44,014 nucleotides of DNA from Candidatus Sigynarchaeum calidifontis. Lineage in GTDB: Archaea > Asgardarchaeota > Lokiarchaeia > Sigyniarchaeales > Sigyniarchaeaceae. How positions within the stretch are numbered: position 1 is the first letter of the stretch; each line of letters opens with the position of its first letter. The notes beneath the pieces were generated by a model. It worked only from the letters and a program-made list of their open reading frames with translations, was not told the origin of the DNA and ran no database searches. The stretch covers positions 1 through 44,014 of the forward strand of contig JAUQYZ020000257.1 of the NCBI GenBank assembly GCA_030587475.2, written 5' to 3'. Shown here piece after piece: positions 8,022 to 26,023 of the stretch. The position numbers and the translations under genes were made by a program.

Positions 8022-9353
8022 TTACCTCGCGGTACACGATGCATCCGAGGTGCCTTTCACGCACGGGATGATTTGCGGTCCTGCGGGTAGTATCAAGATT
8101 CTCGCGCGTTTCCCGTGTTTTTTCACTGCTTGCGCGATAGCTTGTTCTACACCCGGCACCCACTTTATGCCGAGCTTGACATCCTTGAAGGCCGACTCGG
8201 GCATCGAACTGGCGACGAGGATTTCAGCCCGCGTGGCGGCACGGGCGAGAGTTTGCACCTGCCAGGAAGTCTCGACGACGAGTTCCTTCGTGAGGAGTTT
8301 CTTGATCAGGGCATGCGGGTCGGCTTCACGCTTTATGATCGCCTCGAAATCGTCGGAGCCGAAACCATCCCGCATTTCGTTGGCCGAGATGATCGTACCA
8401 CCCTCCTTTACGGCCAATTCACCAAGGACTATGCTCTTCACGGCCTGGTACAAGTTCAAATCGAGCGGATACCCGCCGTTGTTCACGACGACAATATCAA
8501 AGTAATGATCAAAGTTTGCAACGATTGTCCGCCTCATGAATTGCACGAGTTCGTTATGGGCTGCTTCGAGATCACCCGCGGCGACCTTGATGATGCGGTG
8601 CCGCTCGTCGAGGCACACGTTGACGATGAAATTCACGCCCACGTGCCTTGCTATCTCGAGTGCGTCTTCGTGGATCGGGTTACCCGCCAGCACGGCAAAT
8701 CGGGCGCATGGGTGATTGATATGCGCAGCGGAATGGTTTCCCATGATCGTGGCATCGCCGGCGATGCCAGGCACGATCGCCTTGCGACCGCCTGCAAAGC
8801 CCGCGAAAAAATGCGGGTCGACGTAGCCCGTGAGCACCTTGAGATCGGCGTCCGCATAAGCTTTATTGATCCAGATGGGCGTACCGCGGCTCGAGATTCC
8901 ACGGTTAACGAGCCGAGTCGCATCCTTCGAGTCGTGGTTTACGATTGAATAGGTCGAGACGATATCCTTCCCGAGCATTCGTTCTAGCTCCTCGGGCGTG
9001 GATGCCCGGTGGAGCCCCGTGGCGACGAGGATCGTGATGTTGCCTCGTTGGATTCCCTCGGCTTCGATCCGCTCGAGCAAGGGGGGAAGGATGTCCCTCG
9101 ATGGGACGGGGCGCGTGTGGTCTGAAACCACGATGCAGGCCGTTGCATCTGCTAGTCGCTTCCGCCGATTTGATCGATCTTTTATTATGCTCTTGATAGA
9201 CCGTCCTCCGACGGGATGATCAATAGCCGCCGCGACAGCGGCTTTCGGGTCGATGAATGGTTTCTGGGGAGCTGGCTTCGCGATCGTGATATCGAGATCG
9301 TCCGGGATTTCGATGTCGAGACCAGCCGTCCCATATTGGATGTTGACCTTCAT
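8022..9353 (-). CDS. larA: LarA-family nickel-pincer (NPN) dependent lactate racemase / 2-hydroxyacid epimerase
   Basis: SDHTRP, ATGLHR, HFFAGFAGGRK, GNH and NLYQAVK motifs, including the two cofactor-related lysines. Confidence 0.88.
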   Translation of the reverse strand: MKVNIQYGTAGLDIEIPDDLDITIAKPAPQKPFIDPKAAVAAAIDHPVGGRSIKSIIKDRSNRRKRLADATACIVVSDHTRPVPSRDILPPLLERIEAEGIQRGNITILVATGLHRASTPEELERMLGKDIVSTYSIVNHDSKDATRLVNRGISSRGTPIWINKAYADADLKVLTGYVDPHFFAGFAGGRKAIVPGIAGDATIMGNHSAAHINHPCARFAVLAGNPIHEDALEIARHVGVNFIVNVCLDERHRIIKVAAGDLEAAHNELVQFMRRTIVANFDHYFDIVVVNNGGYPLDLNLYQAVKSIVLGELAVKEGGTIISANEMRDGFGSDDFEAIIKREADPHALIKKLLTKELVVETSWQVQTLARAATRAEILVASSMPESAFKDVKLGIKWVPGVEQAIAQAVKKHGKRARILILPAGPQIIPCVKGTSDASCTAR

Positions 9354-9552
9354 CACGTGTCAGCACGGTTTTTCGAGTTAGTAAGTCTCAATGAAGCATA
9401 GCAATAAACCCATATCGGAAATAATAGAATTGCGGAAAATCGATCAAGATATATCCATTGCGAAATTTTCCAACTTACACGGATTAACGCTTTAATTACT
9501 CCCACACGAAGAATAATCAATCATCGTCGTCGCAAGGGAGTTATCGTATCGA

Positions 9553-10548
9553 GTGAAAATGGTCATGGCGGTCAAACCAGCAATAAAAGATATTTCCGTG
9601 ATATTAACGAACGCCCCCCAATTGATGCTCGGGACGAAGCAATACCCTTTGACCTTCACGATCATGAACTTGCGCAACGATGTGAAGGATGTATCAGTGG
9701 AATTCGCTTCAAAATCCTTGAAGATGGATTCGACGACCTTCGACCTCACGCTAGCACCCCAAGACAAGCAAAGCATCACTGTCACGGTTACCCCGGAGAA
9801 GGACGGCGCCCTCGACTTGGCGGTCACGATCAACGAGAAGAAGACCATCAAATACACGGAGACCGTGCTAGAGGGGCACGAAAATGATATGCATCAAGAG
9901 GCGGCCCCGGCAGCCACGCCAACACCAGCACCCGTGACGGCCGCAGCTGTAACCCCCGCGAAACCAATTCAGAAGCCGACAGGAGCCCCGGTGAAACCGG
10001 TGAAGCCATCGGGAGCTGCTGCCCCCGTAACCGTGCCAGCGGTGCAAAAACCGGCTGGTGCCCCCGTAAAGCCCATGAAACCCGCGGGAGAAATTACTCC
10101 GGCCAAGCCGGTGAAGCCGGCTGTTATCATAGCTCCGCAGAAGGTTGCTGTCGGGGCGGAAGACGCCCTCGAAAAGCGCATCTTGTCCATCAAGGACAAG
10201 TACATGGCTGCCCGTACCACTTTACAGTCATTAAAACAAGGATCTCCCGAGTATATGCGCACGTACCAGGAGGCGGTGAAATACAAGGAGCAATACGAGA
10301 AATTAAAGTCTATATACGAGTCCGGTGGCACGATGGCGGATGCAGAGGCTGCGGTACCGTCCGAGTCCAAGGATCCCGTCACGGAGCTGAAGGAACTCGG
10401 CCAACGATATACTGATATGAAGAATCGCCTCTCGATGTTGAGCCCTGGCTCACCCGAGTACGAAAAACTCAAGCAAGAGGCGATGGCAGTGTATAAGGAA
10501 TACAATGACAAGCGGAACAAGGCCAAGGCGCAAGGCATAGTCGTATGA
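9553..10548 (+). CDS. Hypothetical protein: beta-sandwich-like N-terminus, Pro/Ala/Lys linker, two GSPEY helical hairpins
   Basis: 331-aa ORF with alternating hydrophobic strands, a repeated QKPxGAPVKPxKP linker and a duplicated helical unit. Start could be the ATG at 9559 or 9565. Confidence 0.75.
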   Translation: MKMVMAVKPAIKDISVILTNAPQLMLGTKQYPLTFTIMNLRNDVKDVSVEFASKSLKMDSTTFDLTLAPQDKQSITVTVTPEKDGALDLAVTINEKKTIKYTETVLEGHENDMHQEAAPAATPTPAPVTAAAVTPAKPIQKPTGAPVKPVKPSGAAAPVTVPAVQKPAGAPVKPMKPAGEITPAKPVKPAVIIAPQKVAVGAEDALEKRILSIKDKYMAARTTLQSLKQGSPEYMRTYQEAVKYKEQYEKLKSIYESGGTMADAEAAVPSESKDPVTELKELGQRYTDMKNRLSMLSPGSPEYEKLKQEAMAVYKEYNDKRNKAKAQGIVV

Positions 10549-10568
10549 ACCCTGGAGTATGAAATGCG

Positions 10569-11603
10569 ATGAGCGAGATCGAGAACATCCGCAACCAACT
10601 CGACCAAATCGAGCAAAAATACAACGGCTTGCTCGAGGAGCTGCAACGGATCGCGGACACGAAGGGGGACGCGGCTTCATCGGATCCCGATTACATCCAG
10701 AAATATGATGAGGCATCGGCGCTGAATGCCAAGTTCGAAGCGCTGCAAACCAAGCTCCAAGAACTCGAAGCTGCATCGCCCCAGGCACCAGCCATTCCTG
10801 AGGCCGCTGTTGGAACCGACGTGGCAGCGGCGGTCGGGGGGATTGACGCCGTGGCACCACCGGAAGGTGTCTCCATGGTGCAAGAGCAACCAGCAGCCGT
10901 TCCTATCGGCGGAGCTCCTGCCGTCGTGGGCGATGCAGCCGTGCAGCCCGGGGAACCCGGGATCGTCGCACCGCCCGCCCCGAAATACGTCACGGTCGAG
11001 CGTGTTCGGGTCGAGATATCGAAAATTCACGAGCAATCCTGGAGTTTCGTTGGTATAACATCCAATGTTTCTCCCGCCGTTCAAGAGCTCGTCAACAAGG
11101 GTGGATATATCAGCGAGAATTTACTGGAAAAGAAATTCGGCAAGCTCACGTTGTTATGTCCCTTCGAGGTGGACTTTCAGATCGGTGGCATGATCTCCGC
11201 TTACAGCCGGCGTTCCGGTTCCCCCGTTGGTCTTATTTATTACCCCCAATCGACTCCTTCCCCCCAAGCAAGCGCCACGCTCGGACAGCTCGTGCAGCAA
11301 TTCGTCGCATCGGGGGCCCCGCGTGGCCACGTGGTTGCATTCCTGAAGGTAAACAAGGTCGAAAGCGATGATAAGGTTTCGATCATCATTGGTGGCTTGA
11401 CCGATCAAGATGGCCGGATCGTGCAAGCGTTAAAGCGGCTTGGCAATGTATTTTCTGATAACGGCATATTTTTCAAGGGTGCTTTATTGGATGATGTTAA
11501 ATCTATAGCCGCGAAGCTCGGTATCAAGCTCGTGACGATCGTTTGTACCAGTAACGTTATTCAGAACCAAGACAATCTCAAGGTACTTGTAGAATCTTTC
11601 TGA
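10569..11603 (+). CDS. Hypothetical protein: helical hairpin, Pro/Ala linker, C-terminal alpha/beta domain
   Basis: 344-aa ORF with GGAG at 10554-10557 upstream of the ATG. Lies 20 nt after the previous gene. Confidence 0.75.
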   Translation: MSEIENIRNQLDQIEQKYNGLLEELQRIADTKGDAASSDPDYIQKYDEASALNAKFEALQTKLQELEAASPQAPAIPEAAVGTDVAAAVGGIDAVAPPEGVSMVQEQPAAVPIGGAPAVVGDAAVQPGEPGIVAPPAPKYVTVERVRVEISKIHEQSWSFVGITSNVSPAVQELVNKGGYISENLLEKKFGKLTLLCPFEVDFQIGGMISAYSRRSGSPVGLIYYPQSTPSPQASATLGQLVQQFVASGAPRGHVVAFLKVNKVESDDKVSIIIGGLTDQDGRIVQALKRLGNVFSDNGIFFKGALLDDVKSIAAKLGIKLVTIVCTSNVIQNQDNLKVLVESF

Positions 11604-11657
11604 CACAGCAGAAATGATCCTTTTCAAATTACTTGAATAATCGATGGGAAAAACCGT

Positions 11658-13487
11658 ATGGATAAAAAACAATTGAAAGAATTAATCGGTTCTGCCAAGA
11701 AAACCATAAAAGAAGCCGACAAGCTCGCGAAGAACGACGTGAACGGCGCCTTCCAGGCCTACCGGCAAGCCGCCGAGTGGCTGCAACATGCCGCAGACGA
11801 TGCGGAAGCCGTGTCCTTGTACCAGGAAGTCGTTGGCAAGATGCAAGAGCTCGTCAACCGGAGCCAGCAGCAACCCGCCGCGCAGCCGGCCACGCAAGGC
11901 GGCTCTTTCCTTTCATTTGCTTCTCCACAAACCACGAACCAAATGTCACGCGAGCAAAGATACAACATACAAGCCCAGCAGCAATACGCGCAGCAACAGC
12001 AGCAGAAACACGGGCACAAGGGCTCAACCGTGCAACCCCCACCGAGACAAGCTGGTGGCTGGACGCCACTCGTTTTCACCCATGGCCAGGAGCTCGAGGT
12101 GCAACTCGTCCGCACGGACGGATCTTTTCTCTCTGGTGAAGAAATGGTGCACCTGATGGGCGAGCTCGTGAAGGAAGCATACAACAAGTTCAAGCAATGG
12201 ATGGATGCCGGGCAAGTGCCGCAATACATAGTGCAGAAGATGGGCGGGTACCCCGTGCTGCACGAGGATCACGAAAAGGGCCTGGTAATGCAGATCCCCT
12301 CCTTGCTTCCCGCTGGTAATCGAATTAACATCGACTCGTTCGGTCGTGACGGCAACGTCGCTGCCATCACCTATATCCTCGAATTAGTTACCCCTATTTG
12401 TCAGTATGTCGAGGAGCTCGCGTGGTGGGAAAGCACGCTGTTCAGCCTCGCTCACCAGGTCCTGCAATCACAAAAAAGTGACTTGTTCATCGTCGGCAGC
12501 GGCTTGAACGGGACGGTCGAGTACATGCGGGGTCTATCATTCGGTGACCATAGCCACATCGGTACGTTCCAGTCGCCGCTTGAAAAGATCCAGTTCTACG
12601 ACATGATCCGGAACTTCATTCCGGCTATCATTTCCTTGTCTGTCAACAGCCCGATCGTGAGCGGGAAGCCGACCGACGAGGTCAAGATAGTAAAAGGTCG
12701 ATACGCGGCCCCGAACTGCGTTCGTTCGATCCGGTTGCTGAATAACACGACCATGCTATCGAGCAACCAACCGGCGAAGTATCCACCATATTTACTCGAT
12801 GATAACGAGCAGACTCGCCAACAATTCCTTTCGACCGTGGGAAAAGCGGATTTTTACGATGCCCGGTTCCAGGACGTGTACCCGTACACCGATTTCGGCA
12901 CGATCGAGGTGCGAGTGTGTGATGCCCAGATTAGTATCGCCCGCCGCATCGGCTTGTGCTTGCTACTCCAGGCCCTCGGTTACAAGACCCGCAAACTCCT
13001 TGCCGCCGGGCGCTACGTGCCAGGTGCGTCGTCGGAATGCCTCGTTAAAAACCGCGAGAAAGCTGTCCGGCAAGGCTTGTTCGGCACGTTCACGACTGAA
13101 GGCATGGACGAGGCCCAGTTCCGCTCATATGACGCGGAGTTCGCAAACATGTACATCGGGGACAGCACGTCGAAGCCTCGATACATGTTCGAGCACGTGG
13201 ACCGAATGTTCCGCTGGCTGGCACCAGAACTCAAGGAGCTTGGCTACGCGAACTCGCCTTACTTGCAACCTCTCATCGCGAGCGTGTATGGCGATCTACC
13301 GAACGGTATCCTTCCCCCGTTTACCGAGGCAGATTACCAGCTATCCCTGTATTATTACAAGGTTTCTAATAGACTCGATCCAAACATCGTTCCTGAATTG
13401 ATCACGCAAACCAAGCAGCACACGTTAAATCCAACGACATCTCCTCTCTCCGGCGGGCAAATTCGTTACCCGCCAGGTTTTCTCTGA
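11658..13487 (+). CDS. Glutamate--cysteine ligase family 2 (GCS2/YbdK carboxylate-amine ligase) with N-terminal MIT-like helical bundle and Gln-rich linker
   Basis: FTHGQELEVQLV, LELVTP, FGDHSHIG, LSVNSP and FGTIEVRVCDAQ. N-terminal ~70 aa form three helices including AFQAYRQAAEWL. Confidence 0.8.
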   Translation: MDKKQLKELIGSAKKTIKEADKLAKNDVNGAFQAYRQAAEWLQHAADDAEAVSLYQEVVGKMQELVNRSQQQPAAQPATQGGSFLSFASPQTTNQMSREQRYNIQAQQQYAQQQQQKHGHKGSTVQPPPRQAGGWTPLVFTHGQELEVQLVRTDGSFLSGEEMVHLMGELVKEAYNKFKQWMDAGQVPQYIVQKMGGYPVLHEDHEKGLVMQIPSLLPAGNRINIDSFGRDGNVAAITYILELVTPICQYVEELAWWESTLFSLAHQVLQSQKSDLFIVGSGLNGTVEYMRGLSFGDHSHIGTFQSPLEKIQFYDMIRNFIPAIISLSVNSPIVSGKPTDEVKIVKGRYAAPNCVRSIRLLNNTTMLSSNQPAKYPPYLLDDNEQTRQQFLSTVGKADFYDARFQDVYPYTDFGTIEVRVCDAQISIARRIGLCLLLQALGYKTRKLLAAGRYVPGASSECLVKNREKAVRQGLFGTFTTEGMDEAQFRSYDAEFANMYIGDSTSKPRYMFEHVDRMFRWLAPELKELGYANSPYLQPLIASVYGDLPNGILPPFTEADYQLSLYYYKVSNRLDPNIVPELITQTKQHTLNPTTSPLSGGQIRYPPGFL

Positions 13488-13526
13488 TCTATTCCTTTTT
13501 ACTTGTCTATTAACTTTATACCAGTT

Positions 13527-14510
13527 ATGGAAATTCGATCTAGTCTTGCGACGACGGGGAAACTCGGCTCGCTTTGGAAGTTACTTTTCTCGCCCGAACG
13601 TCCTGGCGTGGCGGCTATTAGTCCGGGAATCTCGTTCGGGTTATGGTGGAAAACGCGATCGCGCGATGTGCAAGAGCGGGATCTTTTCGAGGGGGCGGTA
13701 GCCGGGGGGTTCGATGCACCTTGCTTGGCTTTTGCATTCGGCACTGGGTACCAGATGGCCTTGCGGCGGCTCGTGCCTGGCTTGCCCCTAGATCTCGTCG
13801 CGTGCATCGCCGCCACCGAGCAAGGGGGTGCCCATCCTCGCGCCATCCAGTCGACTATCCGGTCAATCGATGCATCGAGCGGCGGTGGTAATCTCATCCT
13901 AACGGGTCGCAAGAAATGGATCACGCTGGCGGCCGAGGCATGGTTCTTCATCATCGCCGCGTCCGCGGGCACGGCGGTTGATGGGCGGAACCAGATCCGG
14001 ATGGTCAAGGTGCCCAGGGACGCGACAGGGTTGTTGGTAATGCCGATGAAGAATGTTCCCTTCTTGCCCGAAATCTCCCACGGGGAGGTTATCTTGGAGA
14101 GCGTTCGTATAAAATCCGATGCAATTCTCCCTGGAGATGGTTATGCCGATTACCTGCGCCCCTTCCGTACCGTGGAGGACATATTCGTTGGTGCAAGTCT
14201 TCTGGGATTCATTTTCCGCGCTGCCCGCGAGCGCGGGTGGTCACGGGCAATTCTCGAGCTCCTCGCGTGCCAGATAGCGGGATTGCACGCGATCGCGAGC
14301 GATGACCTGACCGCTCCCGAGACGCATGTCGCATTGGGGGGATTTCTCGCCCAACAGCGTCTTGTGCTGGAGCAGGTCGACAAGCTTTGGCAAGCCGCCG
14401 ATCCTGCATCGAGGGATGCATGGAACCGGGACAAGCTGGTCCTAGAGATTGCGGGCAAGGCGCGGGCCGCGCGCCTCGACAGCGCATGGAAGCGACTGGG
14501 ATTGGTTTAG
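13527..14510 (+). CDS. Acyl-CoA dehydrogenase-like flavoprotein (short type)
   Basis: AATEQGGAHP, LTGRKKWITLA, GDGYADYLRPFRTVED. Start uncertain (TTG 13503 or ATG 13527). Confidence 0.7.
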   Translation: MEIRSSLATTGKLGSLWKLLFSPERPGVAAISPGISFGLWWKTRSRDVQERDLFEGAVAGGFDAPCLAFAFGTGYQMALRRLVPGLPLDLVACIAATEQGGAHPRAIQSTIRSIDASSGGGNLILTGRKKWITLAAEAWFFIIAASAGTAVDGRNQIRMVKVPRDATGLLVMPMKNVPFLPEISHGEVILESVRIKSDAILPGDGYADYLRPFRTVEDIFVGASLLGFIFRAARERGWSRAILELLACQIAGLHAIASDDLTAPETHVALGGFLAQQRLVLEQVDKLWQAADPASRDAWNRDKLVLEIAGKARAARLDSAWKRLGLV

Positions 14511-16498
14511 CTGGTGATCCGCAAGAAGGGCGGCACGATGCGCCGGAACTCAGCATCGTCCTTGTTCTTCGTGTATATCAAGGCGCGGATGAGTTTCTCC
14601 TCGAACAATTCGCCGGTCACCTGGCGGCTCTTGATGCTCGCCCCCTTCGCCAATTTCAAGGTATACGATTCGGGTGGTCCGGCCAGCTCGACTTTTCTCG
14701 GTATCACGAACCCAACGAGACCCAGCGTCGATGAATATGCCACCACGATCGACTTGAACTCGCCCTGGTTTTCGATACTGATGAGCTCGAGCTCTCCCTT
14801 GAGATCGTCGTTCACCTTCGTCATGGGGGTCCAGTCGTTGTAGACGTGAGGGAACGGCTCGTACATGAGACTGTTGAACTGGGCGAGTTGCATGACTTGC
14901 TCGTTATATTGGTCGATTTTGGTCTTTTCCGTGATGTCGAACGACTGGTCGATCAGGCTATCCAGGTGCATCCCCCCCTTCTCAATCTCGTTCATGCGTA
15001 CCCCCGCGATGATATAGGACTTTTTCATACGCTCGATCAAGGAGCGATTCTTGTGCACTTGGCCCGAGACGATCGCGGCCTCGAGAGCCTCGTCGTAGAG
15101 AAAAACAGAATATTGCGGTTTACCGAAGATCAAGAAGTAATCGGCCATTTCAGAGAACGCACTGGCCGCTGCATCGGGATTTTTCATGGACAGGCTTTGC
15201 ACCATCTTGATGAAGTCCTGGACTTCCTCAACTCGCTCGACCTCGTACGATGCGATGGCTTTGGCAAGTAAGCACTTGATCTGCATCTCCACGTCCTTTA
15301 CTTTCTCTGCAAGATACCGGGCGTACTCGAAGTGCTCGATGGCCTTGATGTAAAAGTCGGAGATATCGGCGAAGTTGAAAAAAAAGAGCATCGCCTTCAT
15401 GTACACGGCATTGAGAACGGCTCGATCTTGGTGGCTCTGCGACCCCCAATAGGCGGTTTCCGTGAGGTAGGTGAACGCGTTGAGCAAGTCGCCGTGTAGC
15501 AAGTAGACATAAGCCTTGAAGAAGGTGACCTTGTATATCTGCAACGCAGTGAGCACGTAGAGGAACGGGTAGGCGTCTTTGAAGTCGAACTTGGCACGGA
15601 TGATGTCCTCGATCAAATCGCTGTCCAGCTGCTTCACGGCGTTTAATGCGGAAGGTAAATCCTCGTCGAGGATGTGTTTTCGCATCTCGTCGAGCTTGGC
15701 CACGTGTGCCTTAAGGTTATCGAGGTATTCCTTGTACGGCTCGATTGAGCTCGCAGTTTTTTTATCCAGTGCCAGAGTACCGGACACGTAGACATCGGCG
15801 ACGCGGAGCTTGGCCATCGAGGTATCGTCGAGTTCGCCAGACGTGATGTAGCCGGTCTTGGACTTGATGACGTCCATGGTCGCTGTTGCACCCGGTTCGG
15901 TCCCGCCTTCGCTCGCGTTTACCAGAGCTGCGGTGCGGTCTATTAACCACGACAGTTTCTTGGCTGCCGGGTAAATATCCTTGCGGGACAAGATGTACTG
16001 GATGGAATAATCGGTGAGTTTCTTCTCCATGGACTTGTAATAGCGCTTTAAAACAGCATCGTTCGTGAGCGTCGACAGCTTAAGCATAAAAGCGCCAGGG
16101 GTGAGGATCTTGATGTCCTTGTTTAATTTCTGGGCATTCTCGACCAGCTTGAAATCATCGGTGACGAGCCACGTTTCCTCCGTCTTTGAGAAGCTATTCG
16201 CGAGGTATAACAGCGACAAGTCATTGTCTTGCGCGGGATTACGATCGTTGAGGGCTTTCTTGATGCCATCGATGTCTGCTTGCGTGACCTTATCGACCGT
16301 CACGACGTAATTGAAATCTTTCTTGGCATCACCCTTGAGAAATGGCATCTCGGCGATAATCTGCCCCGAAACGTGGTACTTGATGCTTTCACTTGCGTTC
16401 TCGCTTTTAACCGCGTTGAGCTTGTTTATCCAGAGCTTTTCCGAAAGCTGATTCACCGAGATAAAAAAGTTGGTGTCGATGACGAAGTGTGTTCCCAT
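14507..16498 (-). CDS. PIN-domain ribonuclease fused to TPR-like helical repeats
   Basis: FVIDTNFF, IIAE, QDNDLSL and LVTDDFKL supply the PIN acidic residues. Central TPR-like helices (KAIEHFEYARYLA, YDEALEAA). Confidence 0.8.
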   Translation of the reverse strand: MGTHFVIDTNFFISVNQLSEKLWINKLNAVKSENASESIKYHVSGQIIAEMPFLKGDAKKDFNYVVTVDKVTQADIDGIKKALNDRNPAQDNDLSLLYLANSFSKTEETWLVTDDFKLVENAQKLNKDIKILTPGAFMLKLSTLTNDAVLKRYYKSMEKKLTDYSIQYILSRKDIYPAAKKLSWLIDRTAALVNASEGGTEPGATATMDVIKSKTGYITSGELDDTSMAKLRVADVYVSGTLALDKKTASSIEPYKEYLDNLKAHVAKLDEMRKHILDEDLPSALNAVKQLDSDLIEDIIRAKFDFKDAYPFLYVLTALQIYKVTFFKAYVYLLHGDLLNAFTYLTETAYWGSQSHQDRAVLNAVYMKAMLFFFNFADISDFYIKAIEHFEYARYLAEKVKDVEMQIKCLLAKAIASYEVERVEEVQDFIKMVQSLSMKNPDAAASAFSEMADYFLIFGKPQYSVFLYDEALEAAIVSGQVHKNRSLIERMKKSYIIAGVRMNEIEKGGMHLDSLIDQSFDITEKTKIDQYNEQVMQLAQFNSLMYEPFPHVYNDWTPMTKVNDDLKGELELISIENQGEFKSIVVAYSSTLGLVGFVIPRKVELAGPPESYTLKLAKGASIKSRQVTGELFEEKLIRALIYTKNKDDAEFRRIVPPFLRITS

Positions 16499-16544
16499 GG
16501 TGCTCCCTTCCGTGCCGACAATGATGATGATTGGTGGCGACGGG

Positions 16545-16626
16545 GAAAAAAAAAGATTAGCTCGCGAGGGCCGGATTGCCGGATATCAGACAGACCCGGA
16601 AAAAAAAAAGGAATTAACCGAAAAAA
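16545..16626 (-). terminator. Oligo-T tracts (archaeal terminator-like)
   Basis: Plus-strand A runs at 16621-16626, 16600-16609 and ~16545-16554 read as U tracts on the minus strand. Confidence 0.45.
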
Positions 16627-16920
16627 GGTGCCATGTTTCCCGGCATTAACACTCTGCTCTCATTGAATGGCCGTTTCGCCATTTTCTTGAGCATGTTCTC
16701 TCATGCCAGGATTACTGGCACCCGGCGGGTGAGAAGCCGTGTTCGAGCATGGGGTTGTCTTGCAATCATCCACGAGTGAGCCACTCGGCTGTCGTGCAAG
16801 GGCCGTGTGCCCGGTGTCCAGCTTCCAATCTCGGATGTGTCCCGCTCCATGCCCTTAGCCTCATCGTTTGGTGCTCGGCAAGGCCTCGAAGCGGGCGCTT
16901 AGCTCGTCAGCGATTCCCGC
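16610..16920 (-). ncRNA. Candidate structured non-coding RNA (~310 nt), family unassigned
   Basis: No ORF of 60 aa or more on the minus strand here. GC-rich block with AT-rich flanks, many nested stems, paired 5'/3' ends, upstream TATA/BRE and a downstream U10 tract. Confidence 0.55.
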
Positions 16921-16940
16921 AATATTAAAGAACGAGTATT

Positions 16941-16955
16941 TACATAAATTCTTTG
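16941..16955 (-). promoter_or_regulatory. Putative archaeal BRE-TATA promoter for the ncRNA candidate
   Basis: Minus strand reads CAAAGAA-TTTATGTA, ending 21 nt before the G at 16920. Confidence 0.5.
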
Positions 16956-17048
16956 CGTCGTTACTGCGGAATTGATGGGGGAGCCGTGATACGGCACAAG
17001 ATACTTGGATATATCGATGGGAAGTACCTTATCCGCCGGACATATCTG

Positions 17049-17282
17049 ATGCTAATAACTTTCGGCTTGATTTTTCTATGCGTAGCCTTATTCATGATGT
17101 TTTTATTTTATGTCCTTCGATTCATTTTCCTTGGGATAGGGATTTCCATGCAAATCGTCGGTGGAATCAAGAGGAAACAAGTTATGATGGCCCCCATCGA
17201 CAGCGATCAAGCCCGGGGCATCCAGGGTACCGCATCCAGATCGCTTTTCAAAAAGAAGGACAATAATTCGCTGCTCCCTTGA
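17049..17282 (+). CDS. Small membrane protein (hypothetical)
   Basis: MLITFGLIFLCVALFMMFLFYVLRFIFLGIGISMQIVGG hydrophobic stretch followed by a basic tail. Confidence 0.45.
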   Translation: MLITFGLIFLCVALFMMFLFYVLRFIFLGIGISMQIVGGIKRKQVMMAPIDSDQARGIQGTASRSLFKKKDNNSLLP

Positions 17283-17304
17283 TAAAATAGAGCGTTCTGG
17301 GGTG

Positions 17305-18396
17305 TCAGAAGGTCGTTGCCAAGTATGCATCATACGCGTCGTGTAGTGCCAGGGCCGGCACAGAGTATTGTTTCGACAAGTAGTGGGGGATGTCAAACAC
17401 GACGATCTTGTCCGCGTATCGACATTCCACGTCGAGCTGCGTGGCGAGGCGGTCCATCGTGCAAGGTAGCCAGGTGTCGATGTCGAATATCTCGAGGTCG
17501 GTCCAGAACTCGACCCCCGCGGCGGCGCAGCTGTCCGCGATGGCGGCGTAGATGGGCGGGAGGTCCTTCGCCGGGTCGCACCGCCTTGCACCGACGCTGT
17601 CCTGGACCATGAGCACGTCGATGCCCGCCGCGGCGAGGAGGGCATCCGCGTACGAACGCGCTTGCCCGTACCAAGCGGGCGCGCACGCGGGCGCGACCGA
17701 GATCTGGAGCCGGTGCCTGCCGAACGCAGCCAGCTCGGCCTCCTTGACGGCGGCGGCGATCCTGGCGAGGAATTTCCCGTATCGCTTGCCCTCTGGAGCG
17801 CCCGCATCGCTGCCAAAGATGTCCTCGTAGGGGAGGTAGATGCCCGCGAGGCTCGGGAGGTGCTTGTAGCGGCCGAGTATCTCGCTCGCGAGGAATTTCG
17901 CCTCGTCAATCTCCGCCGCGAGCCACGTCGCGTCGTCCATGTGCCACCAAAACGTCCAGTCCGCGGATAGACCGACGTGAACGCGGAGTCCGTGCTTCTC
18001 GGCCAGGTCAAAGAACACGTTGAGCATGTCGGGCAGGTCGTGGTTCGGGAAGGAAGCGTTCGCGACCGTCATGCCCGCCCCGACCGAGGTCGCATCAAAG
18101 GGGTACTTGCTTGACTGGTAGAGCGTCTTGTTGGTCGCCGCGTCGTGGATCCACTGGAGGATGATCGTGTCTATGCCCAGTGCCGCGAGTTCACCGAGCT
18201 CTGCGTCCCACATGGTGTAATTCCACGTCGCAAGCCCTGTATATTGGATGAAAGTGCCAGCGATTCGCTGCGCGACCTTGCGCGTCGGCCGGAGAAAATC
18301 GTGCTGGAAGTTGAGGTAGTAGGCCACGGGATATTCCGTGGCAGCTACCACGAGGAGTATAACAGTGCCGACGCGAAAGGCTTTTGACGCGTTCAT
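17305..18396 (-). CDS. DUF4434/DUF5109-like glycoside-hydrolase-type TIM-barrel protein with N-terminal membrane anchor
   Basis: IAGTFIQ, LGIDTIILQW, AEKHGLRVHVGL, GIYLPYE, DVLMVQDSVG, FWTDLEIF. Hydrophobic N-terminus. ATG at 18396 preferred. Confidence 0.75.
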   Translation of the reverse strand: MNASKAFRVGTVILLVVAATEYPVAYYLNFQHDFLRPTRKVAQRIAGTFIQYTGLATWNYTMWDAELGELAALGIDTIILQWIHDAATNKTLYQSSKYPFDATSVGAGMTVANASFPNHDLPDMLNVFFDLAEKHGLRVHVGLSADWTFWWHMDDATWLAAEIDEAKFLASEILGRYKHLPSLAGIYLPYEDIFGSDAGAPEGKRYGKFLARIAAAVKEAELAAFGRHRLQISVAPACAPAWYGQARSYADALLAAAGIDVLMVQDSVGARRCDPAKDLPPIYAAIADSCAAAGVEFWTDLEIFDIDTWLPCTMDRLATQLDVECRYADKIVVFDIPHYLSKQYSVPALALHDAYDAYLATTF

Positions 18397-18477
18397 ACGT
18401 GCTCCTCTCGCTTGCGGGGATTTAACAATGTCGCCTGGCAAAAAGGAGGACAATAATAATTAACAAGAACGTAAAGG

Positions 18478-19140
18478 TTAGCCGTCGAGTTCCTTCTTGA
18501 GTTTTTCGAGCTCTTTTTTGACCTTCTCGCTGCGGGTGGCCTCGTCCTCGACCGACTCGGGCTCATCTTCCAACGGAACCGCTATGTTGCTTGTTGGTGT
18601 CGAGGGCAAGGTTTGGCCATCGAGCATAACTGCCGCCTTGAGCTCCTCGAGTTCTTCCTCGACCGCATCGCTTTCCGCTTCGCTCTCCGGGTTTTCTGAC
18701 ATGACCTCGGCGCTTTCATCCAAGGCTGCTATGGCTTCCTCCGATTCTTCGTTCAATTCCATAATTTGTTCGGGCTGGAGCTCTTCAACGTGCTTCTTGA
18801 GTACGGCAGTCGTGGATTTCATGGTCTGGCCCATGGTCTTGATGGTTTCCGCTGACTCGATGGCATCCGATTGGCGTTCCAATTTTAAAATAAATCCTTG
18901 AAATCTTTCCAAGTTATTAAGAGCACGCTTCCTGCGAATGAGATAAGTCTTAGCCAGGTTTATGTTACCATCAATAACCGCTTTTCTTGCTTTGAGTTGA
19001 AGATCTTGAGCATCTTTCTCGTATTTCTTGATGCCAAGTCTAATCTGGTTGATAGATTGCTTGAGATCGGCCTTACCGGTATCGACACTTGGCTGCTTCT
19101 TTTTCGGAAAGAGCTTCTTCATCTTGATCAATCCGTTCAT
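18478..19140 (-). CDS. ESCRT-III / Snf7-family protein (Vps20/32/60-like)
   Basis: Basic N-terminus KKLFPKKK, helical hairpin ARKAVIDGNINLAKTYLIRRKR...LERQSDAIESA, acidic VEEELEELK, LPSTP and a terminal KKELEKLKKEL helix. Start 19140 or 19122. Confidence 0.88.
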   Translation of the reverse strand: MNGLIKMKKLFPKKKQPSVDTGKADLKQSINQIRLGIKKYEKDAQDLQLKARKAVIDGNINLAKTYLIRRKRALNNLERFQGFILKLERQSDAIESAETIKTMGQTMKSTTAVLKKHVEELQPEQIMELNEESEEAIAALDESAEVMSENPESEAESDAVEEELEELKAAVMLDGQTLPSTPTSNIAVPLEDEPESVEDEATRSEKVKKELEKLKKELDG

Positions 19141-19353
19141 GCTGCTTAATCTAAAAAAAGTTATGGATAAAGGCCATGAATCAAGGTTATCGCAATGTTC
19201 GATAGACGTGTATGCGGCACGCCACGACATGATGATGATCCGAGATAACAATAATCGAAAGTCGCGTCTTGCACTCGATATCCAAAAGCTGCTTTGCTTG
19301 TAAGCACTATCAAATGACATCTATCGTATTGGAAAAAGAACTATGTAAAATTG

Positions 19354-19930
19354 ATGAAAAAATACGACCACACCCTCACACACGACGCCAATTCCCAGCG
19401 CCCCAGCGGGCACCATCTGGTTCGAATCAATCGTCCAGTTCGTCGGGGGTAACAAGACTGTATTCACGAAAGACATCAACCCGGAAAAAATGAAGGAGCT
19501 TCAAAAGGCTATGGAAAAACCGAAGGAAATGAAAGCAACCACCCACGTGCTGGCCAAGGCTGCGACAGAACCGAAGCCAATAACTCCCGTGGCTATCGTT
19601 TCGGGTGTGCAATCCTCTGCAGCGGCTGAACCAAAAGCAGCAACTCCTTTGGGTAATGCATCGAAAAGCTTATTTCCTGCGGAGGAGGTAACAAGCAAAA
19701 TAGTAGAAGCTGCTGGACTTTCGAAGGTTTCATCTCTTGCAGTGGTAACACCGGAAACATAATCACCCGTTGCAGTGGAATTAAAGGTGGAGAAATTTGC
19801 GGAAGAAGAAATGAGATTGGATTTCGTCAATATCGAGAATGAACACGATTGCGGGAAGAGCGGAGAAAAAAAGGCGATATATTCGATTTTCCCGGCATGG
19901 AAAAATAACCTTCTTAATATTTTTCGCTGA
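19354..19930 (+). pseudogene. Probable disrupted gene for a low-complexity Ala/Pro/Glu/Lys-rich protein
   Basis: One protein-like frame runs 19361-19930, broken by TAA at 19760. The ATG at 19354 is out of frame across an A6 run. Confidence 0.35.
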
Positions 19931-19998
19931 TTACTTATTCTATAGCTAAGCATGGTCTTGCGTTACCGTGCTCAATGGCATATACAAGCGTGCTGTCC

Positions 19999-22900
19999 AT
20001 GAATACTAAAGTCTTGCACGAGATCAAGCACTTATTCTCTAGCGGCCAGAAAGACTTCAAGCACGGTGATTTTAATTCGGCTCTCGTGCAGTTCAATGCA
20101 GCATTTGGCAAATTCCGAGACCATGGCGACTCGGAAGGTATGGCCGAGACCCTATACGAAATCGGCATAACACAACAGAAGCTCGGGCAGTTCAATGATG
20201 CTATCGTGTCATTGAAGGAGGCTTTGGAACTATACCGCTTCTTGAAGAAGCAAGAACGCGAAGTAATCACTTTGCACGCCATCGGTATAATACAAGCTGA
20301 AATTGGTGCCGACGAGATTGCCACGAAATATCTGGAAGATGCACTTGCTATATACAAGATCAAGGATTACAAATCAGGTATTGCCGCTATCCAATTCGAG
20401 CTCGGCAACATCTACTTTAAAGGCGGTGAACACGCAGAGGCAAGGCGTCAATACGAGGAAGCCGTTGCGATCATCAAGCAAATCGATGGCATAATGGGTA
20501 TGGCCAAGGTCAAATATATGCTCGCACTCCTCGATTTCGTGGAAGGGGACCTCGATGCTTGTATGGAGAAACTTGACGAGGCGAGTGCCTTGTTCCAGAA
20601 TGATTCGGACATCGAGGGTCAAGTCCGCGTACTTTCCATCGAGGGCCTCATCGCGTTAAGAAAGGGCAATACGAAGGAGGCGGAAAATTGCTTTGACGAG
20701 TGTGCGCGCTTGGTTGCCGAGGGATATTTGCGGGAACCGTCCAAGACAGGTGTGCTGGATAAGCAGATGGAAGTCCAGCTTCTCCTCTATATGGGCACCT
20801 TGCTATTCAACGACACCAAGTACAACCTCCCGGATCTTGGAATGACACTGCACCTGCGCGCATACAAGTATTTCGAGGATGCAGTTGTACTGGCAGAAAA
20901 AATCAAATATCGGAGCGGCGTATGCCAGGGTCTTTTCAATATGGGGATGATCCTATTCGATAGGGGAGATTTAGACAGTATCAAATCTTCCGTCGACAAA
21001 TTTTCTAGCGTGCTCGACATTGCGAAAGAAATCAAGAACAACGAGCTGATCGTAAAAAGTTTACTTTTCCTGGGAATTGCCCATAGGTGCTTGAACAAGC
21101 ACGACCAAGCATTGGTTTACTTGCAAGATTGCTCGATTATCTCCAAGCGGCTTAAATACGCTATGCTAGAGGCCCGTGCATTGATGGAGAAGACGCGCAT
21201 CATGCTCGTATTCGGGAAGCTCGATGATGGGTTTTCAACTCTAGCCCAAGCGCGCGCCATCGTTGCCGGGAACGCGGATCTCGCCGTGCTCGACTGGGAG
21301 ATCCTCGTCCTCCAGAGTGATCTCTACCAAGGCACCGGGGCGCTAGACAAGGCAACAGAGTCATTACTCAGAGCACGGGATGAATGTATCAATCGGAACG
21401 ATAAGAAAGGGCTCGTCAAGGTATTGCACGAGATGGTCAAGCTCGACGAGCGACAAGGTTTCATTTCCCATGCCATCGCATGTTTGACCGAGATCGAGTC
21501 CATCCATAAGGCTTCAAACCAGTTCACCGAGATGTCGCGGGCCAGGATCGATAAGGCTAGGCTCGTTTTCATTTCGGGCGATGTCGATCGTGCCATGGGC
21601 ATGCTACGTGACGAGATCACGTTCATCCGTGACACTGGCATCACTGATGGCGACGCGCTTATCGCTAGTGCCAGGGTTATTCTCTTCAAGATTCTTAAAT
21701 TCAAGAACGAGATCATAGAATCGGAGGAAATATTTCGTGATTTACTTTCATACTTTAGCGAAAACAATAAAATGTCACAATTGTTTGATATATTCATCGA
21801 AATCGCATATGATGCCATAGATGATGGCAATATCATCTCATTAAAACGCTCGATGGAAAAACTATGGAAGATCATTAGCCAGTCACGCGAAACGATCGAA
21901 CAAAGCGAGCAACTAGTCTATTTCCTTCATGTATATGGCTTGATGCATCAATGCGAGGGAACTGCAGCAAGTCTCGATTTGGCACGGAAATACTTCGGGG
22001 AATGCCTCACCATCATCCAGAAGGCAAATATGGACGATATGAAGCCCGTGATCACTGCCCAACTGGCAGATCTGGCCGTCGTCGAAGGAAAAGGAGAAGC
22101 TCTTTCCCTTTTCAACGAGGCACTCCGGCACTTCACGGAGGCGGGAAAACTCTTGGACGCGGTTCGAGTCCATGAACAGATCGCCTGGATTCTTTACACT
22201 AGCGGAAATCTCGACGAAGCGCTCGATCACGCTTTAAACGCGGCCCGGATGTTCGAGGATCACTTGATTGCCCATTCTCCATATGATATTACCAATGACA
22301 TCAAGCGAAAGTTCCACTACTATACCCGGCGGTTCGATGTATATGCTTTCCTTGCAAGCTTGTATCTCGAAAAATTTATCCAAGAAAAGGACGATATCGC
22401 ACTAGAGCGGGCATTGATCTCAGTTGAGTTCCAAAAGATTTATACTTTCCACCAGCAATACTATGCAAAGCACATGTTCACGATGCTATCTTGCCCGAAA
22501 CTAGAAAAATACATCGAACAAGATGAGCAGCTGTCAAGGGAGGCCGTGGTGAAGCAGAAATCGATCAATTTCCTCGCGGATTGTAAAGCATTCCACGAGC
22601 GGATCTTGATGACTCCCGATGCACATAAAGAATTCACGAAGAGAACAATCGATTTCTTGAAGGAAAAATTGAAGGACGAGCGCGCGGCGCTTGCAAGTAT
22701 CGTGTCGAAGGTCAAACTCAACCGTGCGTACTTGATGGAATGCAAGGATCCAGGCTCACTGCTGCCATTCATCGGATTCAACGTGGTAAAGCAAGCGCAA
22801 AAACAGCTAGCAAAATACCCGGATTTCGCAGTGCTCGATTATGCCATCCTTCCTGGGATCGCTAAGATTGCCACTTTTTTAATGTACAAGGATCGCATTG

Positions 22901-23862
22901 AAGTTTTTTTAAAAGAATTGACCCCCGATTTTTTTGCAATTATCGATCGATTGCGCGAGGCACGCTCGATGGTACATGCGGCCGAGATCCTCGTCTTGCA
23001 CCGGCAGCTAACGGCTTGGCTATTTCCGCCCCGGTTAAAAGAATGCATGGCTAAACAAGGTGTAAAATACATTTTCATATCACCAGATGCCAGGCTCGGC
23101 GACGTGTTCTTTACGCTGCTTGGCGATGACAATGATTTAGCTAAAACCTTCACGTTTGTTTATATATCGCACTTGATCGATTTCAAGATCGTGATGCGGG
23201 AGGGGACAGGAGCCAAGGGGTCGGGAGGCTTGAATTTTTACATTCTGTTCCCGGATGCAACAGACGAGATCACGATCGACGAGAAGGCCAACTTCGAGCA
23301 TTTTTTCGCTGGACGTTCCAGCAAGGCTCCTCATGCAAGCCCCGCCCATGTTATTATGGTGGATAATGATGCTGGCTATCAAGGGTTGAAGGACATCGCA
23401 AGGATCAACCCGAATGTCATCCATTACACCGGAACTTGTTTTTTTCCTGCGTCATTGCCATTTAAAGGACATTTGAATATGAATGACCGCTCGTACTTCC
23501 TCGAAGATTTCATGGACCTCGATCTCGCCAACAAGCAAGGCTTGCTGTGCATATCTTCGACCGATGAAAGCCCTCTCGATATCAATCAAGCTCTCGTTTC
23601 GTGGAAGACTCTCGCGCTGTGCAACATCCCCCATCTCTTCTTCGTGCAATCCCGATTTGGTTCCTCCGGGCGGATATTCACGTTCTTCTATGATTGCTTG
23701 CTCAAAGGGGATACGATCGGGCAAGCCTACCACAACACTATGCTTTACTTTGCAAAAATGCAAGAGATCTCGCCACTCGCGCTCTCAAGCCACGTGCTGA
23801 TAGCCAATCCATTCTGGAAGCTTGCTGGCGTTGAAGCAGCTGAAAAAGAAGAGGAGATTTAG
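19999..23862 (+). CDS. Large TPR-repeat protein with C-terminal CHAT (caspase-like) domain, catalytic dyad degenerate
   Basis: Many TPRs (e.g. AETLYEIGITQQKLGQFNDAIVSLKEALELYR), CHAT-type FISPDARL, VIHYTGT and LCISST, and terminal GQAYH...HVLIANP. Start 19975 or 19999. Confidence 0.8.
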   Translation: MNTKVLHEIKHLFSSGQKDFKHGDFNSALVQFNAAFGKFRDHGDSEGMAETLYEIGITQQKLGQFNDAIVSLKEALELYRFLKKQEREVITLHAIGIIQAEIGADEIATKYLEDALAIYKIKDYKSGIAAIQFELGNIYFKGGEHAEARRQYEEAVAIIKQIDGIMGMAKVKYMLALLDFVEGDLDACMEKLDEASALFQNDSDIEGQVRVLSIEGLIALRKGNTKEAENCFDECARLVAEGYLREPSKTGVLDKQMEVQLLLYMGTLLFNDTKYNLPDLGMTLHLRAYKYFEDAVVLAEKIKYRSGVCQGLFNMGMILFDRGDLDSIKSSVDKFSSVLDIAKEIKNNELIVKSLLFLGIAHRCLNKHDQALVYLQDCSIISKRLKYAMLEARALMEKTRIMLVFGKLDDGFSTLAQARAIVAGNADLAVLDWEILVLQSDLYQGTGALDKATESLLRARDECINRNDKKGLVKVLHEMVKLDERQGFISHAIACLTEIESIHKASNQFTEMSRARIDKARLVFISGDVDRAMGMLRDEITFIRDTGITDGDALIASARVILFKILKFKNEIIESEEIFRDLLSYFSENNKMSQLFDIFIEIAYDAIDDGNIISLKRSMEKLWKIISQSRETIEQSEQLVYFLHVYGLMHQCEGTAASLDLARKYFGECLTIIQKANMDDMKPVITAQLADLAVVEGKGEALSLFNEALRHFTEAGKLLDAVRVHEQIAWILYTSGNLDEALDHALNAARMFEDHLIAHSPYDITNDIKRKFHYYTRRFDVYAFLASLYLEKFIQEKDDIALERALISVEFQKIYTFHQQYYAKHMFTMLSCPKLEKYIEQDEQLSREAVVKQKSINFLADCKAFHERILMTPDAHKEFTKRTIDFLKEKLKDERAALASIVSKVKLNRAYLMECKDPGSLLPFIGFNVVKQAQKQLAKYPDFAVLDYAILPGIAKIATFLMYKDRIEVFLKELTPDFFAIIDRLREARSMVHAAEILVLHRQLTAWLFPPRLKECMAKQGVKYIFISPDARLGDVFFTLLGDDNDLAKTFTFVYISHLIDFKIVMREGTGAKGSGGLNFYILFPDATDEITIDEKANFEHFFAGRSSKAPHASPAHVIMVDNDAGYQGLKDIARINPNVIHYTGTCFFPASLPFKGHLNMNDRSYFLEDFMDLDLANKQGLLCISSTDESPLDINQALVSWKTLALCNIPHLFFVQSRFGSSGRIFTFFYDCLLKGDTIGQAYHNTMLYFAKMQEISPLALSSHVLIANPFWKLAGVEAAEKEEEI

Positions 23863-25886
23863 AACTGCAAGCCTTGTGTCGACGTTTGGATCGAAGCGAG
23901 CCTTCTACGCAACTCTTGACCCTCCTGGTTGAGGGCAATCATCTTTTCGGAAAATAGCTGGTGCGTCGAAAAGTAGACGCTAGCAGCGATCTTGCCAAGC
24001 TCGAATTTGGCTTCGAGGTTTCGCATCGTTTCCTTGATGGACGCTATGCGCTGCTCGATCGCTTGCAGTTGATTCATGAGCATGCGGATTTCTTGAGATT
24101 TCTGGATCCTGGCTTGCATTAGTTGTTGCTGGTAAGCATCGACACCTTGCTGCATATTTCCGCTGCCCGTTCCGGCATTTGATCCGAAAGACGTCATACC
24201 TGTAGCAGGTGAGCTATACATTGCCGTTGTGGCCGGTTGAGGTGCGAATATGGGAACTTGAAAGCGTGTGTCGACCTGGGGGTATGCTTGGGTCAGGACT
24301 TGTTGGGTTTGTCCTTGGCCGTGCCCGCACACCGGGTTGTAGTACCGACTGTCCACGTTCGGGATCACGGGGGTTGTTAAAAAATCCTGAGGTGCGGCAT
24401 CCGGCTGGCAAATATCGACTGGGAACATGTTTCCGTCCACGTAATATTTCCCACAATGGGCGTTATGGATTCCTTGGGAGCCCGGCGATGCGCCCGCCGA
24501 CCGTGGTCCTTGGTCAAAGGGGTTGTCGCCAGCGATGGTCAGGATTTGATCGAGTTCCGTGTTCGAGGTCGCTGCCACGCTAGCTTGGTTCCTCGTGAGT
24601 TGGGAGACTGGTGAGCCGGCATACTGGGTCGGCGCAGTTGGAGGACTCGTATCGCATGGGTTGAGCAAGCTATTGATGTTTTCTTCGATAAAGGCCTTGA
24701 TCTTGAAGATCGAGTTCACATCAAACGCCTTGATCCGTTGGATCTTGTCTTGGTCCAGCTTGTTCAGCGTTTCGAAATTTAACAACTGGTCGAAATACTT
24801 GGCGAGCAACTGCATTTTCTCCTTGTCCATGTTGAACTTCAAGTTGATGCCTTGGAACTGCAAGGCCATGCGCTTGAAGATCCTCCCGATGATGTCGGTC
24901 GATAACAATTTACTGACGGGAAACGAGAAGAGCAGCGCGTCGGTCTTCTTGATGTGCCCCTGGCACTTGATAAATTTGAAAGACTTGGTCGTGAGGAGCA
25001 CGTGGCCGTGCCCTTTGTGTTCCTCGTCGTCAGATTCCAGTTTGACGTCCTCCACGTGTATAACCGGGTATTCTGCCTTGTCGATGCTGATGATGCCCTT
25101 GTTCATATACTTGATGAAAAATTCCTTGATCGTAAGCAAAAACTCGATTCGATCTTTCAATGATTGCAGCATCTCAAGCGGCTGGTTGAAACTCTCTGAT
25201 ACCTGGGCCGTGAACGACAAGAAATCCGATTGTAACTGGCTGATGTATGTTTCCAGAACCGCCACGTCCTGGTTCTGCCATGTCTTACCGTCGAAAAAAT
25301 ATGGCTTCTTTGATCGAAGAAAGAGGAAAAAATGCTGGATCCTGTTCATTATCCGGCGTTCGATGAGAGCCCCCTCCTCGAAGAGACTTAGCATCTCTTG
25401 TTCCAATCCAGGCTCGTGGAGCATAACCGGCAGTTCTAAACGCAATTTCATGAGTTTTTGCTTGGCCGTGCTAAGGATTCCCGTGAAGTTGGAAAATTCT
25501 TCAAGGATATTCCGGCTGTCGATGACGATGCTCTTGTATTTTTCTTTTAAGTTACTCTTTAACTCGTCGATCTCGGACGTGTTCGGCGAGCGGCATTTCG
25601 GGCAGACTTGTTTATCACGTTGTACTGAAACGATTCGTGCACTGCCAATGCCCTCTTCCTTGCATTGTCTGCAGAAAAATTCGCCGGTCTTCTCATCAAT
25701 TGCGAAAAAATTCATTCCACATTCGCTGCACACCTGAACCTCCTCCTTTTCCTTCACCACGCAAGAATCACAGAAAATAATGTGGCAGTCATGACAGAAG
25801 TGGTTGGCCGAACGAATATTTTTGTTGCAGACCTCGCATTCCATGAAATTGGGCAATACATGGCGAGACATGGCTGTTTGACTCAT
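23859..25886 (-). CDS. Multidomain protein: B-box-like Zn finger, Zn ribbons, coiled coil, PH/GRAM-like domain, low-complexity region, steadiness-box-like C-terminus
   Basis: CEVC-x9-HFCHDCHIIFCDSC, CSEC/CRQC/CPKC, GHVLLTTKSFKF, LEAKFELGKIAASVYFSTHQLFSEK. Confidence 0.65.
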   Translation of the reverse strand: MSQTAMSRHVLPNFMECEVCNKNIRSANHFCHDCHIIFCDSCVVKEKEEVQVCSECGMNFFAIDEKTGEFFCRQCKEEGIGSARIVSVQRDKQVCPKCRSPNTSEIDELKSNLKEKYKSIVIDSRNILEEFSNFTGILSTAKQKLMKLRLELPVMLHEPGLEQEMLSLFEEGALIERRIMNRIQHFFLFLRSKKPYFFDGKTWQNQDVAVLETYISQLQSDFLSFTAQVSESFNQPLEMLQSLKDRIEFLLTIKEFFIKYMNKGIISIDKAEYPVIHVEDVKLESDDEEHKGHGHVLLTTKSFKFIKCQGHIKKTDALLFSFPVSKLLSTDIIGRIFKRMALQFQGINLKFNMDKEKMQLLAKYFDQLLNFETLNKLDQDKIQRIKAFDVNSIFKIKAFIEENINSLLNPCDTSPPTAPTQYAGSPVSQLTRNQASVAATSNTELDQILTIAGDNPFDQGPRSAGASPGSQGIHNAHCGKYYVDGNMFPVDICQPDAAPQDFLTTPVIPNVDSRYYNPVCGHGQGQTQQVLTQAYPQVDTRFQVPIFAPQPATTAMYSSPATGMTSFGSNAGTGSGNMQQGVDAYQQQLMQARIQKSQEIRMLMNQLQAIEQRIASIKETMRNLEAKFELGKIAASVYFSTHQLFSEKMIALNQEGQELRRRLASIQTSTQGLQF

Positions 25887-26023
25887 CACGACGCATCGAC
25901 ACCCGTGTTTTACTAACCTACGGCTACACTCCGACCTGGGGACTACTTATATGGCCATGTCATCCCGATCATCCGCCAAGGAAAGATAGATAAGGGCCAA
26001 GGACGGCGTCAAAGCGAGCAGTA

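Follow-up and report, generated by a model that had tools for sequence, protein, structure and literature searches.

Ligases of the carboxylate-amine superfamily share a chemistry in which an acyl-phosphate is formed at the expense of ATP and is then attacked by an amine. To our knowledge the only protein-conjugating use of this fold is pupylation, where PafA and Dop offer a precedent for conjugation together with its eraser. Members of the superfamily are recognised by GhExE in strand 1, acids in strands 2-3, HxH in strand 4 and ExRxxD in strand 6 (PMC2588565). The same study (Iyer, Burroughs and Aravind 2008) described bacterial neighbourhoods in which a GCS2-sized ligase occurs with an amide-cleaving enzyme, the partners being GATase-like peptidases or gamma-glutamyl cyclotransferases, and read ligase-plus-peptidase neighbourhoods lacking a tag gene as devoted to small-peptide synthesis.

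The window analysed here is the whole stretch of 44,014 nucleotides from Candidatus Sigynarchaeum calidifontis (contig JAUQYZ020000257.1), and its features are collected in Table 1. The ligase that it encodes belongs to an Asgard family that resembles those bacterial systems in combining a GCS2-sized ligase with an amide-cleaving enzyme and no Pup-like ORF, but whose partners are different, namely an Amidohydro_2-like enzyme, a Cdc48N-like/VWA protein and a scaffold with an apparently dead PghP/FGase fold. No paper describing this module was found in the literature, an earlier account in Iyer 2009 or Scott 2005 being possible.

Table 1. Features of the window around the carboxylate-amine ligase gene
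Feature	Position	Strand	Remarks
First gene of putative operon, 20 nt gap	9553..10548	+	Ig-like domain, Pro-rich linker, helical hairpins
Upstream partner gene, 54 nt gap to ligase	10569..11603	+	Helical hairpin, linker, alpha/beta domain
Carboxylate-amine ligase gene (YbdK/GCS2 fold), Sigynarchaeum-family form	11658..13487	+	609 aa
Three-helix bundle, TPR/MIT-like, family-specific	11664..11870	+	aa 3-71
Gln/Pro-rich linker, variable in length and sequence	11871..12059	+	aa 72-134; aa 74-92 disordered in model
Ligase domain with family-specific inserts and extra C-terminal helices	12060..13484	+	aa 135-609
GxExE metal-binding motif (G143, E145, E147)	12084..12098	+	
HxHxG motif (H298, H300, G302)	12549..12563	+	
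RFQDVYP, Tyr408 at the strand-5 Arg position	12864..12884	+	
GTIEVRxxD motif (E417, R419, D422)	12897..12923	+	
Context: Snf7/ESCRT-III gene with MIM2-like (LPxTP) and MIM1-like tails	18478..19140	-	Pfam E 1e-17
Context: ESCRT-I-like gene, likely Znr_PH_CC_SB	23859..25889	-	Named by architecture against PMC10936438

The ligase gene is a real one: its 609-aa frame is open throughout and full-length homologues exist at 62-89% identity, the closest being from Candidatus Sigynarchaeum and other Promethearchaeota. In the structure model built on 101 homologues (pLDDT 91.5) the GS-fold core starts at aa 135, and its best match is YbdK, represented by Salmonella 1tt4 and E. coli 1r8g (Foldseek E 7e-15; Z 33 with an rmsd of 2.7 over 332 residues). 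Second comes plant GCL (2gwc) with a Z of 26, followed by Dop and PafA with 19.6 and 19.4, respectively. The earlier note had pointed to PafA as a protein-conjugating member of the superfamily; the catalytic domain is YbdK-like and not PafA-like, PafA and Dop being much more remote within the same superfamily. Moreover, no match to PF03136 (Pup_ligase) was obtained in the genome at E<=0.1, while the Corynebacterium control was positive.

The motifs read earlier from the translation were all found, at residues 143-147 (GxExE), 298-302 (HxHxG), 414-422 (GTIEVRxxD) and 406-409 (DVYP). Across the family, G143/E145/E147, D231, E242, H298/H300 and E417/R419/D422 are kept in 97-101 of the 101 homologues, and E242, H300, R359, E417, R419 and D422 are invariant. 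The published signature is thus retained with the exception of the arginine of strand 5. The replacement in DxRP that had been pointed out is present but is not peculiar to this protein, for 97 of the 101 homologues have F or Y at position 408 (Tyr408 here), and DVYP is consequently a signature of the family. The superfamily arginine of the loop preceding strand 5 is represented by R359 in all 101 sequences and by R403 in 96. The latter, which lies five residues ahead of position 408, may substitute for the lost strand-5 arginine, and the loss means that the chemistry of the ligase may differ.

In profile searches the ligase passes the cut-off of Pfam GCS2 (PF04107; 25.2 bits against 21) but misses every NCBIfam cut-off for YbdK or GshA, with 60.8 bits against 176.4 for TIGR02050 and failure in all PRK1351x models. 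With YbdK/GCS2 enzymes it shares the fold and the GxExE, E, HxHxG and ExRxxD motifs; it differs in its identity of about 20%, in being about 120 aa longer, in the exchange of the DxRP arginine for F/Y with a new conserved arginine five residues earlier, in its association with a hydrolase, a VWA protein and a scaffold, and in its fusion to interaction domains. We file it as a separate family within the superfamily, neither YbdK proper nor PafA.

The ligase domain is present in 128 of the 151 genomes of the class, mostly in single copy, and the phylum sample shows it in seven or more Asgard families. Distant homologues carry it within proteins of 650-3800 aa (up to 3804 aa) together with Ig-like, VWA, zinc-ribbon, HhH and SAP regions, all with a family match, and helical-repeat regions. 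A fusion of VWA and ligase exists (P0146), and no fusion to a metabolic enzyme was recognised among those with a family match. The genome contains two GCS2-like genes only, the ligase and a paralogue of 1327 aa with a long C-terminal region, which is located two genes away from a VWA gene.

The gene neighbourhood is conserved. Of 51 loci, 47 have the scaffold gene directly upstream of the ligase and 32 have the amidohydrolase just downstream of it; some genomes are counted twice in these figures, and the counts are not independent since the genomes are related. In deeper lineages the operon is opened by a gene encoding the Cdc48N-like/VWA protein. Among the 20 loci that hold distant homologues or paralogues, a VWA gene was found nearby in 14, the amidohydrolase in 11 and a small pseudo-hydrolase in 9, and Snf7 or MIT in none. 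The Sigynarchaeum family departs from this layout in two respects. Its scaffold is divided into two genes, 9553-10548 being the split-off N-terminal part of the Lokiarchaeial scaffold and 10569-11603 the remainder, and its hydrolase and VWA genes are located elsewhere in the genome. These are present in all four lineage genomes tested, and in the genome studied here their motifs are intact, the VWA MIDAS included. Conversely, genera g7 and g20 are without both the ligase and the hydrolase (five genomes searched), and two g7 genomes that lack the pair retain a Vps4-type MIT. Rfam searches over 9000-26000, including 16500-17300, gave no match at E<=0.1, and promoter scans revealed nothing above chance.

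The C-terminal domain of the upstream partner was not recognised by HMM searches against PDB and Pfam, PF05908 included. Its predicted structure was related to PF05908 by Atlas features (0.90), with TM of 0.61-0.62 to FGase clusters. In 30 sequences no conserved His/Glu column that could provide zinc ligands or a catalytic Glu was detected, and only D-x3-F-x2-G is kept. The partner is thus apparently a dead enzyme of the poly-gamma-glutamate-hydrolase/FGase fold, a Zn-carboxypeptidase-like alpha/beta fold that is predicted here from one Atlas call.

The reading that best accommodates these data, and to which we assign about half of our confidence, is that the ligase writes a reversible amide mark, probably gamma-glutamyl, on a protein or peptide. 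It would be the writer of a four-part module distributed throughout Asgard archaea. By analogy with the chemistry of the superfamily, it would, with ATP and Mg, convert a carboxylate (most likely the gamma-carboxyl of Glu) into its phosphate and would then join it to an amine. The context suggests that the acceptor would be a protein or peptide, that the metal amidohydrolase would remove the amide, and that the Cdc48N-like/VWA protein and the Ig-like scaffold with its dead glutamyl-hydrolase fold would present or read the substrate. In the Sigynarchaeum family the ligase has gained a TPR/MIT-like bundle where sister lineages carry a poly-Lys tail. The observed basis of this proposal is the GS/GCS fold, the intact metal and phosphate ligands, the conserved partners and the joint absence of ligase and hydrolase. 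Against it stand the closest solved structure, which is that of a small-molecule ligase, the reading of tagless ligase-plus-peptidase neighbourhoods in PMC2588565, and the ligase neighbourhoods themselves, beside which no small Pup-like tag gene or proteasome gene is conserved, ORFs of at least 90 aa being covered. Compared with pupylation, the candidate eraser is moreover an unrelated TIM-barrel amidohydrolase.

The alternative that survives best, although we consider it doubtful, is a make-and-break cycle acting on a small molecule or a cell-envelope compound, in which the VWA protein and the scaffold only localise the enzymes. A gamma-glutamyl amine, a short gamma-glutamyl peptide, or a cofactor or lipid tail would be candidates. 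Such a cycle agrees with the best structural matches (YbdK and plant GCL), with the published view of ligase-plus-hydrolase pairs that lack a tag gene and with the fold of the partner, which is that of poly-gamma-glutamate and formylglutamate hydrolases. However, the ligase neighbourhoods share no conserved transporter or pathway enzyme, and the recognised fusions are with interaction domains. The general idea of the earlier note, that the enzyme would act on something other than free Cys and plausibly on a protein, fits these fusions and the partners; its targeting to ESCRT-III does not fare as well.

In that proposal, confined to the Sigynarchaeum family, the N-terminus would be an MIT domain that binds the MIM tails of ESCRT-III and brings the ligase to ESCRT-III or its cargo, which we regard as improbable. 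The three-helix N-terminus itself was confirmed by the structure model (H3-26, H28-44 and H49-71; pLDDT 88 over residues 3-71). The linker that follows had been described as poly-Gln; it is Gln-rich, but with 19 Gln among the 67 residues of aa 68-134 and a longest run of 5 it is not a true poly-Gln. The weak point of the claim is the identity of the bundle as MIT. MIT is its top Pfam match, with 9 of 13 members at E<=1 and a best value of 5.7e-5, but the whole protein scores 18.8 bits and aa 1-75 alone 23.6 bits, both under the cut-off of 30, and several unrelated helical-repeat proteins of the same genome reach equal values of 18-23 bits, whereas the genuine Vps4 MIT of this genome obtains 47.8 bits against PF04212. 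Likewise, MIT structures hold the top seven ranks in Foldseek, but at E-values of 0.14-0.24, with none at 0.001 or below. The N-terminal profile gave nothing at useful E-values against solved structures.

Structural comparison leads to the same ambiguity. The bundle is an antiparallel three-helix one with a Z of 10.1 to the MIT structures 2w2u, 4u7i and 8uc6 (VIA-align), yet TPR proteins reach 11.0 and 10.3, designed bundles also tie, and the Atlas shape search returned a TM of 0.90 to TPR proteins. With a profile of Asgard Vps4 MIT the bundle scored 11.7 bits against 99 for Vps4 itself. In hhalign it matched Lokiarchaeial three-helix repeat units, independently chosen from another protein of the same genome, at 57%, compared with 5-27% for Vps4 MIT and 4% for TPR units. 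MIT domains have been described as resembling the first three helices of TPR (PMC13413365), so that the fold alone cannot decide the identity of the bundle. With the MIT domains of Vps4, spartin and calpain-7 it has in common the three antiparallel helices, a similar size, an rmsd of about 2 and the Ala/Tyr pattern of helices 1-2; it differs in that helix 3 lacks the Y..RA..L of Asgard Vps4 MITs (ungapped register), and in that TPR-plus-cap and Lokiarchaeial repeat units match it equally well or better. The bundle cannot be told apart from TPR-like or Lokiarchaeial three-helix repeats.

Its history is short. The bundle occurs in only 13 of the 120 best homologues, and a search of 5.8 billion proteins did not find it on other proteins, nor did the N-terminal profile find a further carrier among longer proteins. 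The 12 bundle-bearing ligases placed in the tree form one clade (support 100/100), whose sister consists of orthologues with poly-Lys tails, and the deeper branch of the class has no extension. As judged from this tree, the bundle is a single late gain in the Sigynarchaeum family. The ligase N-terminus is hence swappable, being absent, poly-Lys, a three-helix bundle or large repeats, which argues for a lineage-specific targeting and not for a function of the family. Most probably the bundle serves for docking in a generic way and does not determine the function of the enzyme; its docking partner may be the helical hairpins of the scaffold.

The presence of an ESCRT-III gene 5 kb from the ligase, also put forward in support of the targeting, is correct: Snf7 is there, on the opposite strand. 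Seven loci of the Sigynarchaeum family have it 2-4 genes downstream of the ligase, its MIM-like tails are conserved, and Asgard Vps4 MIT domains are known to bind ESCRT-III subunits (PMC7240154). However, the same family block also holds two ABC transporters, gatC, larA and a PIN-TPR gene, so the linkage of Snf7 is normal synteny at the level of the family. In the genomes checked outside the family the ligase has no Snf7 nearby, and in near-closed ones the two are at least 100 kb apart. Snf7 stands with a Znr_PH_CC_SB-type gene in 12 of 20 Lokiarchaeial loci, none of which contains the ligase, and the stretch is best read as the meeting of two independent gene blocks. The bundle and the proximity of Snf7 coincide in a single clade and amount to one event, which is no proof of co-evolution. 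When aa 1-75 were modelled in complex with the C-terminal 50 residues of the Snf7 encoded nearby, the prediction scored 0.02, the mark being 0.32, and it is counted neither way. With the bundle and the Snf7 linkage restricted to the same clade and partners that are not ESCRT genes, the link between MIT and ESCRT appears to be mostly a coincidence of a generic bundle with local synteny.

Some details of these loci deserve mention. The listed Snf7 ORF of 280 aa (18478-19320, minus strand) probably starts at 19140 or 19122, its orthologues having 215-228 aa. At locus L144 no Snf7 is found within 5.6 kb of the ligase, where the contig ends. Downstream of the ligase, the first gene to be conserved in those family loci that reach far enough is one with PIN-like and helical-repeat regions (14507-16498, minus strand); its linkage to the ligase is tighter than that of Snf7, and other Lokiarchaeial ligase loci did not show it. 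Another genome (G153) encodes, on scaffold PPR_0005, a chimera in which an unrelated GTPase-like/helical ORF of 780 aa is joined in frame to the C-terminal half of the ligase (L003:7643-11038). This is probably a misassembly, and since the chimeric ligase makes the scaffold suspect, the distance of 870 kb between ligase and Snf7 in it was not taken as decoupling.

It is also very unlikely that the enzyme is an ordinary glutamate-cysteine ligase making gamma-Glu-Cys as a thiol buffer. The passing of Pfam GCS2 and the presence of only two GCS2-like genes in the genome are compatible with that role, but the scores fall far under the NCBIfam cut-offs, the N-domain of glutathione synthetase (PF02951) was not found in this genome, which is 89% complete, and GshA would not be expected to come with paralogues, giant fusions or linked hydrolase and VWA genes. 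Matches to PF02955 (27-49 bits) in the genome were discounted, being probably ATP-grasp proteins of a generic kind, since the Methanocaldococcus and Sulfolobus controls were positive and PF02951 was not found. The explanation that we find least credible is that the enzyme is a deamidase or isopeptidase of the Dop type, or that its fold serves some purpose other than ligation. Although Dop has the same fold and the strand-5 arginine is replaced family-wide, the module already has an amidohydrolase, the closest relatives are ligases and R403 may replace the lost arginine.

The writing of a reversible mark on a protein would, if true, give Asgard archaea a third protein-conjugation system beside ubiquitin and pupylation. 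In its complete form, in which a gamma-glutamyl or isopeptide mark is written by a ligase derived from YbdK, erased by the amidohydrolase and read by the VWA protein and the pseudo-hydrolase, and in which the bundle redirects the system to ESCRT-III in the Sigynarchaeum family, this scheme is hardly probable; the protein mark taken by itself stands at about an even chance. The module, made up of a ligase, a hydrolase and interaction proteins, has been retained, duplicated or lost as one unit among the nearest relatives of eukaryotes and is a candidate, open to testing, for a hitherto unknown reversible modification of proteins. Its parts are soluble-looking products of single genes and can be expressed. 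The locus described here adds a family-specific variant with a dispersed module, a split scaffold and a gained three-helix cap.

Several further observations concern the relatives of these proteins. Three large proteins of the genome (C93:5671-7695, C204:13354-16641 and C157:703-4905) contain dispersed three-helix units with the pattern A..lI..A......A...Y..A.....GW, and proteins of this kind give many sub-threshold MIT matches in Lokiarchaeia; they seem to form an as yet unnamed class of repeats, intermediate between TPR and MIT. Six giant proteins of 2200-3800 aa (P0142, P0147, P0151, P0154, P0160 and P0161) carry the ligase domain near the C-terminus, and one giant of this kind has HhH and SAP motifs. 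One homologue carries a Thermoplasmatota label (L068:273-4748) and has N-terminal helical repeats; the 766-aa gene directly after it had no HMM match at E<=0.01, and by eye its end resembles the pseudo-hydrolase domain. The VWA-ligase fusion at L069:600-10889 follows genes for a DNA methylase, SLATT, TGT-like, QueC, TIR and QueF proteins, surroundings that look like a defence island.

Genes for gelsolin-like, roadblock, longin and small-GTPase proteins, which are common in Asgard genomes, flank the module by eye in several Lokiarchaeia (L052, L059 and L055). Finally, the genome studied here encodes a paralogue of the Cdc48N-like/VWA protein (C26:5907-11454) with a C-terminal segment that is ubiquitin-like by eye. 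E1-like and E2-like genes occur no more than 4 kb away from it, and it may tie the VWA family to ubiquitin-type conjugation.
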